DNA of 64,000 nt from Eledone cirrhosa (lineage: Eukaryota). Made by a program: the position numbers and the translations under genes. The DNA lies in the NCBI GenBank assembly GCA_964016885.1, contig OZ024740.1:398102001-398166000 (forward strand), written 5' to 3'. The notes under the pieces were generated by a model. It worked only from the letters and a program-made list of their open reading frames with translations, ran no database searches and was not told the origin of the DNA. Below, piece after piece: positions 2,672-50,091 of this stretch (positions are counted from its first letter, which is position 1; every line of letters begins with the position of its first letter).

Positions 2672-2859
2672 ACGCCTGTCTCCATCTCCGTTTGATTGTC
2701 AAAACACATATTAACATTCTCTATTAGTCTTAATTCTATCAACTCTTCTATTATTTACCATTTAATATAAACTGCTATAGATAAAATGAGATTTCTGATT
2801 TCTTAATTCAATTCCCTAATGCATATACCAGCTGGCTACTAACATTATGTTATTCAGTA

Positions 2860-3171
2860 GCGGTGGATTGGCAGTATCGGTAGAGAATCGGACGCCATGC
2901 TTTCCAGCATAGTTACGTCCCTTTACGGTCTGAGTTCAAATCCCGTCGAGGTTAACTTTGCCTTTCATCCTTACGGGGTCGATAAAATAAAGTACCAGTA
3001 ATGTACTGGGTAATTGCTGGCCTTGTGCCTAAAGTAGAAACAATTATGTTAACTTTGTGCCTAAAGTAGAAACAATTATGTTAACTTTGCCTTTCATCCT
3101 TACGGGGTCGATAAAATAAAGTACCAGTAATGTACTGGGTAATTGCTGGCCTTGTGCCTAAAGTAGAAACA
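2860..3171 (+). mobile_element. tRNA-derived SINE with a duplicated 3' half
   Basis: A-box TGGCAGTATCGG, B-box GAGTTCAAATCC. TSD ATTATGTTATTCAGTAGC at 2844-2861 and 3172-3189. Confidence 0.85.
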
Positions 3172-4189
3172 ATTATGTTATTCAGTAGCAGTCGAAATCT
3201 CCCCCTTCCTCAATTGACACTTTATAATTAATACTACTACACCAAATGACCAGCCCTGTCCACTGTTCAATTGGTCAAGTATAGATTAAAATAGGCACTC
3301 CCAAAAATTCTTATTTAGATAAAATAAACCTTTTACTCATTGTATTCTCATTAGAAACCCTTTATATACTTGTTTAGCTGTAAATTGAATTACCATCTGT
3401 CATATACCCTCCCCTCTCTTCTTCCTCTATTACAACTAATATAAATACTTCAATTTTTCTGATTTTATCCAATTTATCCAAAATCTCTGAAGAAGTGACA
3501 ACTGATTATACATTTTCTATCGAATACTTGCTAACATTATGTGATTACGCAAGCAGCGATACATAGGTATTCCGTCTGTTACAGAAACATATGTCAATAC
3601 CTAATAAATTCCTTTTTAAAAAAAGCACTTTCATTTTATATTCATCTTTTCTACATTTTCTCCGGAATATAATTTATACTCGTTGAGCAAACCTACACGT
3701 ACGCTGTTCATCTCTAACGTAACGATATATTATCACTACATTATTGATAACCTTAAATTTTTATATATATATATATATATATTTATTAAAATAACAGATT
3801 AAAGTTTAAGCAAAGAATCGTTGCTTTCACCCTTAACGGGTATATACATATTTACACATTTTTGGATGGCCGTTGACTCTTATGAGTTCTTCTGCCCTTT
3901 GTCAGGTTTTGTTTTTGTCCTGCAGGGAGACCAAAATCTCCCTCCTTACCAAGTAAACTTGGTGGGTTGCTGGTTTAATCGCCGACGAACCGACCATGCA
4001 ACAGGTTGTACTGGGTTACATGTTACCAGTAGCACTCAAGAGAGACCCGACACACACACACACACACACACACACACACACACACACACACACACACACA
4101 CACACACACACACACACACACACACACATATATATATATATATATATATATATATATATATATATATATATATATATATTTGTATATAA

Positions 4190-5213
4190 TGGCGATGAAT
4201 TAGTTTTGCGAGGTTTTTGATATGAAATCGTGCGTCGAAACAAATATTGTTATACTTGGGGACGGTCACATTTGTGTAATAATATTGCCAGAATTAATAA
4301 CAGAACACACCCACTGTTTGGTTGGTTTTCGCTTCTGTGTCTTTTATATCGGTTAATTTAATTTATTCGCTCCTCAATGTTACCATTGACTGCCCAACGG
4401 TCAAACATACAGATATAATATAGACACAAACACATATATATATAGTCTAACAAAGTTCTTTCGTTGCACATCTGCAACATCGTCAGTGGTGCTATTGTTT
4501 CCGCCTGTTGTATTATATGCCTACGCCATCTTTATTTAGTCTGTTTATTTATTTATTTATTTATTTTTGTCTTCTCTACGCATGCGTTTGCGCGTGTGTA
4601 TAGTGTTTGATGTGTGTTCGTGTTTGGGTGACTGTGTATTGGTTATTGTATTGTATCTTAGTTTACTAGTGTGTATTTATATGTGTTTGTTGTTGTTGTG
4701 CTTGTGTATGTATTTATTTATTTATTTATACTTCTCTTAGGTCAGTATTGTTTGTTTGGGTGTTGTTGTTATTCCATTCATTTTTTAAATTTTCTGTTTA
4801 GCCTTGGCCTTCTAAGTTCTATTTCGCTGGCCTCTCTGATTTACCTATCTACTGGGTCATTTCTATGTTTAGATATTATTCCAATTTCTATGTTGTCTAT
4901 GTTACCGTCGTGTTGTTGTCTGGCATGTTCGTATAGTACTGAACCGTTTTTTCGTCCTTTTAGTTCCCCCAGTGTTGGTCTATCCTTTCACCTATGCTAC
5001 GAGCTGTCTCGCCTATGTATGTTGTTGTCATGTTTCTGCAAGTACCCTCTGTACATCTTATGCTATAGACTACGTTTCTAGTTTTACAGTTTATCCGTTT
5101 ATCTAGTTTTTACAGTTTATTCTAGTTTTACAGTTTACAGTGAGTGTGTTCTGTTATTAATTCTGGCAATATTATTACACAAATATGACCCTCCCCAAGT
5201 ATAACAATATTTG
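4190..5213 (-). mobile_element. 5'-truncated Neptune-like PLE (GIY-YIG end and 3' UTR) with an inverted terminal segment at the 5' junction
   Basis: Homologous to 55522-56310. 5136-5213 is the reverse complement of 4241-4317. CTGACGA-stem II-GAAA core on the minus strand at 4459-4486. Confidence 0.8.
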
Positions 5214-47436: not shown

Positions 47437-48741
47437 AAACGAATAACGATGGTTGCTAGACACTACGTCTTAATACGGGATATTTGTTTACAAACACACC
47501 GAGCATTATAATAAATGTTCGGTGAATCCATACGTACATATATATATGTGTGCATGTATGTATATATATATACATACTACTGTACGTCTGTATACATATA
47601 TGTATGTACGTGTATATACTTATAACGAAGTGTCCTATTTCAATTTTCAAACTTCGCTCGCCGCTTTCTAAACATACTTCCCATATGTGTAGAATAGAAG
47701 TTACAGTCACTGCACATATATGTATATAGATTTACACATATTTAATAAATACACATTTAAAAATGCGAAATATACGTATTTCACTGTAAATTGATAAAAA
47801 AGAAAAAAAACACCTTTAGCTGGTTTTCAAGTCTTTGTTGGGCTTTGACCAGAAATTATGCATATCATCTAAACAACCCCTACTATAAAGAAGTATGTAA
47901 TCGAAGGGCTTATATACTATATCACTTATAGGAATATTCTGAAATGGGTGTACTAATTTGCATATTACAAGCGCTCATATTGGTACTTAACTAAGATATA
48001 TATTAGTTGTACGCTAAACAGATAAATTATATCTGTAAGAACCTCGTATCTAGCCAAAAGGTAATAAATTTATTCTTGAATGTTCACCAATTCACAAATT
48101 CTTCAGTATACCCACCATCTTATATCGACATTGCACTTTGTATCTCTTCTTTTTTTCCTTTTATTTCTTCCTTTTTCCAACACCTCTTCTTCCCCCCCCC
48201 CTCATATGCCACCCCCCCATCTGCCCACACACACTCAGCCGTTTACATATTTCTCTATCACCTGCGTCTACTTTCATTTACATTCACAATTTACACTTTT
48301 TTCTTTCTATCTCACCCCAAATTCTATTTCTTCTTCTTTCCACTATATCCTTTTCTGACCTCCCTCTTGTATTTTCTTTTTTCTACCTAAGTTTCTCTAT
48401 CACTACCATCATTATCAACTCTCTCTCTCTCTCTCTCTCTCTCTCTCTCTCTCTCTCTCTCTCTCTCTCTCTCTCGCTCTCTCTCTCTCTCTCTCTCCCC
48501 TCTCTCTCTCCCTCCCTCTCTCTATCCATCTCCCTCTCTCTCCTATGTTCTCACTCACTCTCCCCTCATCATCTCTCCACACCTCCTCTTCTTTCCCACT
48601 TTATCTGTGTCTTTCCAACTGCCTCTCTCAGTCCATCATTCTGTCATTCTATCTTCCATCTCTCAGTCCATTCCTTCGGTATTTTCTCTCTCCCTATCTC
48701 CCCTTCTCCCTCGCTCTCCCTTTTTCTTTCATTCTTTCATT

Positions 48742-48917
48742 AGGCAGTATCGGTAGAGGGTCGGACGCCATGCATTGACGCATAGAGTTACGTCCCTTTA
48801 CGATCTGAGATCAAATCCCGCCGAGGTTAACTTTGCATTTCATCCTGTCGGGGTCGATGAAATAAAGTACCAGTAATGTACTGGGTAATGGCTGGCCTTG
48901 TGCCAATAGTAGAAACA
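48742..48917 (+). mobile_element. tRNA-SINE
   Basis: SINE homology; 3' end GGCCTTGTGCCAATAGTAGAAACAATTAT. Confidence 0.85.
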
Positions 48918-49692
48918 ATTATATATCTATTTATTTCCCCATCTCTCTCATCCCGTCATATTTCCCCCTTCTCTCTCTCTCTTTCTCACCCCGCCATATT
49001 TTCCCTCTCTCACTCTCTCTCTTATCCCGTCATATCTTTCCTTTCCTCTCTCTCTCTCATCCCGCCATATTTTCTCTCTCTCTCTCTCTCTCTCTCTCTC
49101 TCTCTCTCTCTCTCTCTCTCTCTCTCTCTCTCTCTCTCTGTCTCTCTCTCTCTATCTCTCTATCTCTCTCTCTCTCTTCTCTCTCATCCCATCATATTTT
49201 TCCCTCTCACAACCTCCCAAACTTATTTTCCTTTTCGGCTTTATTGCTAGTTCTTTTCTTATTCTTTATCCTCAATCCTATCCCCCACTCCGCCATCTCC
49301 ATAATTTCAACGTCGAGGTGAAATTCCGTCAGTATAGTGCCTCTATAAAATCATCCGAAATATCAACACTTGATATTGGCGTTGAACGAAGAATGCCAAG
49401 AGAATAGAATTAAAATAGCAACAGTAACAACAACAGTAACAACAACAAAGACTACTGCATCAGTAACAACAACAGTAACAGTAACAACAACAGCAACAGT
49501 AACAACAACAAAGACTACTACTGCAGCAACCTCAGCAGTAACAACAACAGCAGCAGCAGCAACAAATATTACCACAGCAGCAACAACAGCAGCAACAGCA
49601 ACTAATATTACCACAACAACAACAGCAACAGCACCGCCATAAACAATATAACAACATCAACAACACTAACAGAACAACAATAATATAACCTA

Positions 49693-50091
49693 CAAGTGTT
49701 AGCTGAAAAGTTCGTAGGCTGACCAAGATACTCTCATGGAATGAATAAATGAGGTTTATTTTTCAACATAGTCCCAGAAAAGAAACAACGCAGTCATTAT
49801 TAATAAGAAGGGCGGTGGATTGGCAGTATCGGTAGAGGGTCGGACGCCATGCTTTCCAGCATAGTTACGTCCCTTTACGATCTGAGATCAAATCCCGCCG
49901 AGGTTGACTTTGCCTTTCATCCTTACGGGGTCGATAAAATAAAGTACCAGTAATGCACTGGGTAATTGCTGGCCTTGTGCCTAAAGTAGAAACAATTATT
50001 AATAAGAAGAGTTGAAATTAAAGCATCAAGATTCCATAGGTCTAGCATCATTCCTTCATAGTCAGCCTATGAACCTTTCAGCCCACCCTCG
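49693..50091. mobile_element. Mariner-type MITE with a nested SINE (49811-49994)
   Basis: TIRs CAAGTGTTAGCTGAAAAGTTCGTAGGCTGAC / GTCAGCCTATGAACCTTTCAGCCCACCCTCG with TA on both sides. SINE TSD is ATTATTAATAAGAAG. Confidence 0.72.

Follow-up and report, generated by a model that had tools for sequence, protein, structure and literature searches.

The window considered here, a 64,000 nt stretch of the genome of the octopod Eledone cirrhosa (assembly GCA_964016885.1, contig OZ024740.1, positions 398,102,001 to 398,166,000), holds copies of a short interspersed element (SINE) together with long interspersed elements (LINEs) of the Tx1 type that sit in (ATT)n microsatellites. It is probably the protein of the second open reading frame (ORF2) of this (ATT)n-targeting Tx1 lineage that copies the SINE in trans. 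A Tx1 partnership had been proposed in an initial annotation of the window and is the best-supported reading of the present data; trans-mobilisation itself we infer from a shared 3′ end, a hairpin predicted within it, and the length, phase and strand of the target site duplications (TSDs). The SINE is a short (185 nt), non-coding retroposon of high copy number whose insertions show TSDs and 5′ truncations. A full-length family A copy at 49810..49994 (+ strand) lies between 14 bp TSDs (49796-49809 and 49995-50008), has no internal TTTT run and ends in a predicted hairpin (49970..49982, +) with the stem TGGC/GCCT and the loop CTTGT. The empty-allele joint of this copy, at 49.8 kb, was not seen among the contigs listed, the alignment being swamped by repeat copies. 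Beyond the window, the 3.0 Gb assembly was sampled as 100 unselected, evenly stepped stretches of 10 kb (1 Mb), 80 of them drawn from the four largest contigs, and about 0.95 Mb was added by targeted searches, which enrich for young copies.

Three Tx1 elements occupy the + strand of the window. Full-length Tx1-A (8692..14612) has an ORF1 and an ORF2 of APE-RT-zf order, both with stops or frameshifts, and lies between (ATT)n runs at 8666-8691 and 14613-14630; full-length Tx1-B (14631..20502), with broken ORFs, is followed by (ATT)n at 20503-20559; a 5′-truncated Tx1-B (21105..21919) is flanked by (ATT)n runs. The 3′ ends of these LINEs, at 14612, 20502 and 21919, each followed by (ATT)n, fall where they had been annotated. 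The lineage combines ORF1 with an ORF2 that carries an APE endonuclease, a reverse transcriptase (RT) and a C-terminal zinc knuckle; Pfam profiles PF03372, PF00078 and PF13966 identify APE, RT and zf-RVT both in the LINE pieces of the window and in the ORF2 of another stretch, L089, which is open over 1204 aa. Judged by its sequence, the LINE has L1-group architecture. The best solved-structure match to its ORF2 is human L1 ORF2p, identity of the RT reaches 41% with the protein called transposon TX1 149 kDa and 39% with a U2-flanked element, and the closest named relative of the RT region is a protein of Argonauta hians (73% identity). In a quick tree whose references did not include a true L1, the octopod elements form one clade (support 100) within a Tx1-like group of unsettled branching, apart from the CR1 and RTE rows. 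The non-Tx1 LINEs presumably belong to the clades suggested by their Pfam domains and by C-terminal motifs that we take to be diagnostic.

The 3′ end common to SINE and Tx1 spans about 22 nt and is centred on CTTGT. Three SINE tails were compared, anchored at the terminus and with 300 shuffles, with Tx1 ends and with 12 non-Tx1 LINE ends, the 3′ ends having been collected from the LINE families found in the sample. Against four Tx1 ends the scores were 18-32, a level reached by 0-1 of 300 shuffles in each case; against the 12 other ends they were 2-12 (18-295 of 300 shuffles), that is, background, and no better terminal match was found among these 12. A hairpin with a CTTGT loop is predicted at this shared end; its stem shows compensatory changes, both from one Tx1 subfamily to another and between SINE and Tx1. 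The loop is present in 235 of 249 SINE ends and in 120 of 138 Tx1 ends, a set that includes a few mis-picked rows. The second stem pair is G-C in the SINE (239) and C-G in Tx1 (127), and the third, among Tx1 subfamilies, is either G-C (89) or A-T (41). In the window, the predicted terminal hairpin of Tx1-A (14587..14599, +) reads GGCC-CTTGT-GGCC and that of Tx1-B (20478..20490, +) AACC-CTTGT-GGTT, a compensatory change relative to Tx1-A in which stem pairs 3 and 4 switch from G-C to A-T. Across 12 chosen ends, three of the four pairs are altered on both sides, with a covariation of 0.53 against at most 0.21 in slid controls.

It is highly improbable that the likeness of the tails reflects convergence or chance among colonisers of ATT-rich DNA, or that the SINE took its tail from a second CTTGT-loop hairpin, located in the 5′ untranslated region (UTR) of Tx1-B (14778..14795, +), and is moved by some other driver. 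The terminal match is short, and the 5′ UTR hairpin, whose loop is CTTGT as at the 3′ end, gives a better local match to the SINE tail than any other part of the element: it agrees at 27 of 35 positions, the tail repeat included, and scores 34, more than all 40 whole-element shuffles (maximum 32) and more than the Tx1-B 3′ end. Set against this, the terminal match lies exactly at both termini and is preserved via double changes, the 5′ UTR hairpin occurs in other Tx1 subfamilies with different letters, and neither convergence nor a 5′ UTR origin accounts for TSDs of L1/Tx1 length in the Tx1 phase. The 5′ UTR hairpin is itself a conserved feature of Tx1, found just upstream of ORF1 in both full-length elements (14778-14795 and approximately 8829-8850), and its stems covary among three Tx1 subfamilies.

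Target sites carry the second part of the argument. TSDs were scored in 156 distinct SINE copies (94 from the unselected sample, 51 from search loci and 11 from the window), with a threshold of at least 11 nt and swapped flanks as the null; 68 copies reached this threshold, compared with 3% (19/600) of the swapped pairs; TSD lengths ran from about 11 to 20 bp, with a median of 15 bp. Among 55 TSDs outside microsatellites, 42 begin with ATTAT and 51 start at the tail, while a start at offset 6, expected if ATTAT were solely the SINE's own tail, was seen in none. For the unselected 1 Mb, TSDs of at least 11 nt anchored at the tail number 36, and 31 of these begin with ATTAT. The seven TSDs first reported for the window are exact direct repeats starting with ATTAT in SINE sense, and an eighth was added at 28622/28823. 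Paralogous empty sites were sought for 52 insertions and the 30 hits were read by eye: 17 were dropped because they matched the insertion itself, SINE tails or low-complexity sequence, and a further 2 diverged at the junction, leaving 11 insertions with clean empty sites in other repeats. Since each of these sites holds a single copy of the TSD, ATTAT is target DNA and not SINE tail. The ATTAT bias noticed in the window therefore persists in other stretches of the genome and resides in the target. One paralogous site was hit by three separate SINE insertions, with TSDs of 15, 18 and 19 bp. Immediately before the TSD, at position -1, a pyrimidine stands in 40 of the 41 sites that lie outside the tails of other elements (25 with C and 15 with T), against a background of 20% C; annealing fails to explain this pyrimidine, because the SINE carries A there. 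The cut may instead be a bottom-strand nick at 5′-ATAAT/purine-3′, a T-purine step like that of the L1 endonuclease.

Phase and strand of the SINE TSDs agree with the Tx1 tails, as had been argued from polarity, but this alone is no proof of partnership, since an (ATT)n terminus is also found on a CR1-type LINE; the features that tell the two apart are the length of the TSD and the hairpin. That this young LINE, ending C(ATT)n and turned up by a genome-wide search with RT sequence, moves the SINE through its AUU tail is an idea with very little left to recommend it. It has the same tail repeat and polarity as the SINE, in runs that are often short, and its copies (L357-L386) are very young, many of them identical, with a 945 aa open frame. 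Among 18 copies with a resolved 5′ junction, however, none had a TSD of at least 11 nt at the tail, compared with 64 of 156 SINE copies (the CR1-type count excludes one duplicated row, two copies with uncertain junctions and every copy that extends beyond its stretch); its end-anchored score is 2 (289-295 of 300 shuffles), its terminal hairpin differs, and, against a partial reference, it accounts for only about 4 kb of the sampled Mb. The TSD signature thus largely refutes this explanation. RTE-type rows with (GAT)n tails (n=20) likewise had no long TSD except for TA repeats.

The insertion sites of Tx1 itself, and the position of SINEs relative to it, also bear on the pairing. ATT repeats lie on both sides of 30 of 32 full-length Tx1 copies, a target-sequence preference, and on both sides of 29 of the 63 truncated ones; one Tx1, in L145, has a 15 bp TSD that starts with ATTAT and continues in non-repeat letters, the SINE-type signature. 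A SINE on the same strand follows 31 of 123 Tx1 ends and a SINE on the opposite strand follows none. After the (AAT)n ends of Dong-like LINEs (n=38) the counts are 0 on the same strand and 7 on the opposite one, and no SINE was found after 31 CR1-type or 44 RTE ends. Activity of the two elements has been concurrent, as their overlapping divergence and nesting in both orders show. In the unselected sample the median distance to the nearest copy is 6.2% for both, over 98 SINE (0-24%) and 17 Tx1 copies (0.5-23%), distances that are upper bounds and depend on the copies compared; the comparison of ages suggested with the first annotation thus gives overlapping values. In L077 the 16 bp TSD of a SINE duplicates Tx1 flank, placing the SINE later, and in L145 the TSD of the Tx1 contains SINE bases, placing the Tx1 later; the order is read from these two loci only, because adjacency across pure (ATT)n gives none. 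The sampled Mb contains 98 SINE copies with body and tail, and SINE sequence amounts to 20.6 kb (about 2%) and Tx1 sequence to 62.7 kb; extrapolation gives roughly 290,000 SINE copies. In three other organisms, contigs were found in which the SINE tail is followed by ATT, and for two of these the matches include single contigs spanning the ORF2 end and the Tx1 3′ end.

A number of observations weigh against the partnership of SINE and Tx1 and temper the confidence placed in it. The match is only about 22 nt long: it is clear when anchored at the terminus, and in unanchored local alignment three Tx1 ends still rank first, but marginally (12-76 of 500 shuffles) and poorly set apart from the other LINE ends, so that the claim of a shared 3′ end stands in the anchored form. 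The end-anchored test was devised after the match had been seen, and the SINE search pattern already assumed part of the stem. This stem has just 3-4 bp, its fourth pair is intact in 123 of 249 SINEs, the minimum-energy fold favours another pairing in two of three SINE ends, and the covariation amounts to about three inherited events in hand-picked rows. No TSD was found in 58 of the 156 SINE copies, and 34 of the 63 truncated Tx1 copies are without one, their junctions not being placed because many have more Tx1-like sequence upstream. A SINE copy that has no terminal hairpin (37180-37272) nevertheless has a 17 bp TSD. Runs of at least four ATT units come after 83 of 107 Tx1 ends and after just 6 of 94 SINE ends (background 61/4226); the relaxed targeting ascribed to the SINE is therefore a real difference from Tx1's own copies, in the length of the array. 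A second Tx1 group (L048, L045, L073, L078, L088, L124) shares the 3′ hairpin but has (TATC)n after it, and scores 24-32 against the SINE tail, as good as or better than the ATT group, while a (TATC)n repeat comes after none of 228 SINE tails. This absence would fit recognition of the hairpin combined with a requirement for pairing between tail and primer. Finally, the LINE survey, covering less than 2 Mb, is incomplete, and the CR1-type 3′ end was initially missed in it.

Some of these points would also suit a scheme in which the tail came from this Tx1 lineage but the SINE is now driven by a Tx1 or L1-type family outside the sample, of lower copy number and with an endonuclease relaxed for ATTAT. 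Besides the unequal array lengths at SINE and Tx1 sites, it draws on the fact that less than 0.1% of the genome was examined and on the history of the lineage: in the quick tree the ATT-targeting and TATC groups are intermingled, which suggests at least one target switch. We regard it as unlikely all the same, as the 30 zf-RVT loci found genome-wide all belong to the same ATT-flanked subfamilies wherever the end is seen, and a scan of 1.5 Mb for direct repeats starting with ATTAW yielded, among the matches listed, 79 SINE-tailed and 2 Tx1-tailed cases and no other recurrent family. A SINE family of about 290,000 copies requires an abundant driver, and Tx1, with 63 kb of the sampled Mb, is abundant.

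If Tx1 is the driver, insertion could proceed as follows. The ORF2 protein (ORF2p) would bind the CUUGU-loop hairpin in a recognition of the stringent type; its APE endonuclease would nick the bottom strand at 5′-ATAAT/purine-3′; the freed DNA end would pair with the terminal AUUAU of the RNA and prime reverse transcription; and a second nick about 15 nt away would give rise to the TSD. The short AUUAU end of the SINE may tolerate any ATTAT, whereas the longer (AUU)n read-through tail of Tx1 may prefer long arrays. A broader proposal, for which the odds seem to us slightly unfavourable, makes an octopod Tx1 lineage a LINE of the stringent type whose recognition signal is a minimal CUUGU-loop hairpin, conserved through switches from one microsatellite to another as target. 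On this proposal the lineage would also drive a SINE superfamily that numbers several hundred thousand copies and occurs in related species as well. A single ORF2p would then place its own RNA in long (ATT)n and SINE RNA at any pyrimidine-ATTAT, so that the RNA tail, and not the endonuclease alone, would set the stringency of targeting. Such a difference in target choice between cis and trans is directly testable.

SINE/LINE pairs with a shared tail are common for the CR1, L2 and RTE clades and rare for the L1 group, and the sole Tx1-SINE link that we found in print rests on targets only: in the available text on crocodilian SINEU and Tx1-Mar (Kojima 2015, PMC4494074), shared targets and ages led to the conclusion that a target-specific Tx1 probably moves the SINE, with loose targeting in some SINEU families (13-23%) and 90% in others. 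SINEU has snRNA (small nuclear RNA) heads and poly(A) tails, and that study found no LINE with the same 3′ terminus, whereas the octopod SINE has a shared structured tail and a microsatellite target. The same source places Kibi and Koshi, Tx1 elements of teleosts, in microsatellites too, namely (TC)n and (TTC)n as opposed to the (ATT)n and (TATC)n found here together with a SINE partner. In the UnaSINE/UnaL2 and ZfL2 systems, too, a 3′ stem-loop with a short repeat after it is held in common, but as far as the accessible text goes they belong to the L2 clade and are proven by assay (Hayashi 2014, PMC4176376), while here the LINE is Tx1-like and its recognition of the hairpin is proposed from likeness. 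Conserved L1-group 3′ ends held in common with a SINE, as here, are described in the consulted parts of PMC3472496 and PMC3747384 for maize and sorghum (ZmSINE2 and LINE1-1_ZM) and for Chlamydomonas (SINEX-3 and L1-1_CR); those plant and algal pairs share about 50-80 nt, the octopod pair about 22 nt. For the monocot pair these sources also give a hairpin in which the loop is conserved and the changes are compensatory (Ohshima 2012, PMC3472496; Ohshima 2013, PMC3747384), and L1-clade tails account for 3 of the 58 SINE/LINE pairs tabulated in the latter, in plants and algae only, with Tx1 in none. What seems new here is a stringent-looking SINE/LINE pair in a clade for which no published account of a shared tail turned up: no shared-tail pairing of a SINE with Tx1 was found described in the literature searched, subscription papers, supplements and the entries of Repbase, Dfam and SINEBase lying outside that search. 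If the pairing is true, an animal Tx1 with a structured 3′ end shared with a SINE would test whether the ancestor of the L1 group recognised its RNA stringently, on the branch nearest to mammalian L1, and it would name the engine of about 2% of a genome, where octopus work has so far centred on RTE and Dong.

Octopus SINEs reportedly described by Ohshima and Okada in 1994 are OK, OR1 and OR2. The octopod family may be one of these or a relative. OR1 and OR2 count among the CORE-SINEs, a class with a central CORE domain. OR1 and OR2 are cited as tRNA-type SINEs in PMC4824008 and PMC4758252, whose available text names no partner LINE for them; nor is a Tx1 partner for an octopus SINE named in the accessible parts of these two sources or of PMC5786205, PMC13282606, PMC9115989 and PMC10294476. 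The label tRNA-SINE, given to the element at the outset, could not be demonstrated: neither ARAGORN nor Rfam found a tRNA match, and alignment with eight genomic tRNA genes was not significant (21-102 of 300 shuffles). Motifs that resemble A and B boxes can be picked out by eye against their consensus. Near-identical tRNA-like copies with Ala, Val, Thr and Asp anticodons (L263, L265-L273) suggest a repeat family derived from tRNA rather than genes.

The copies in the window had been treated as one set with a shared tail; the tail is common to them, except that the copy at 37180-37272 has no hairpin, and that at 6777-6997 belongs to a longer sister family. On the + strand, a compound insertion at 2844..3189 consists of a family A SINE with partial duplications inside one TSD (2844/3172, 16-18 bp). 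Further family A copies on this strand lie at 26474..26653, with a short ATTATTATT repeat at either end; at 30460..30665 (TSD 30460/30654, 12 bp); at 34247..34449 (TSD 34247/34439, 11 bp), with paralogous empty sites at 23.5 and 39.5 kb of the window; at 46856..47028, where a clear TSD was not seen; and at 48743..48917, the tail variant of which is nearest to the ends of ATT-targeting Tx1. On the - strand, the family B sister with the same tail spans 6762..7012 including its TSD (6762/6998, 15 bp), and family A is represented at 28622..28840 (TSD 28622/28823, 18 bp; paralogous empty site in stretch L031), at 31745..31933 with a slight 5′ truncation (TSD 31745/31922, 12 bp), and at 33664..33755 as a 5′-truncated copy within an older SINE. 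The hairpin-less copy (37163..37289 with its TSD, 37163/37273) is also 5′-truncated and on the - strand; its missing piece is exactly the terminal hairpin, it was the sole such copy found by pattern search, and the loss may reflect skipping of the hairpin by the RT or a later deletion. A larger Penelope-like repeat is present twice (28284-29312 and 59227-59459), both times with the SINE at the identical site, the SINE of the second copy having lost its 3′ end, and a 33-bp tandem repeat at 35682-35933 is made of the central segment of the SINE.

The Tx1 copies of the window form part of a nested, microsatellite-associated LINE array (8666-23001), in which Tx1 with (ATT)n is joined, in opposite polarity, by LINEs with (AAT)n. 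The latter comprise two 3′ fragments on the - strand that we take to be Dong/R4-like, one at 20560..21070, ending in (AAT)n, and a second at 21971..22970 in the same array. Similar nested arrays in L075, L112 and L051 combine RTE-BovB-like LINEs with (ATGT)n and Dong-like LINEs with (ATAC)n. Metagenome relatives of the Tx1 element are 23-42% identical, and an (ATT)n end was seen by eye in none of the 23 3′ regions listed, many of them partial. In one of the metagenome sequences (L290), a Tx1-like element is followed after position 5606 by what looks by eye like U2 snRNA sequence, resembling the Keno group. An abundant RTE-type LINE (L105, L066, L052) has a PHD finger directly after the RT core in its ORF and a (GAT)n tail.

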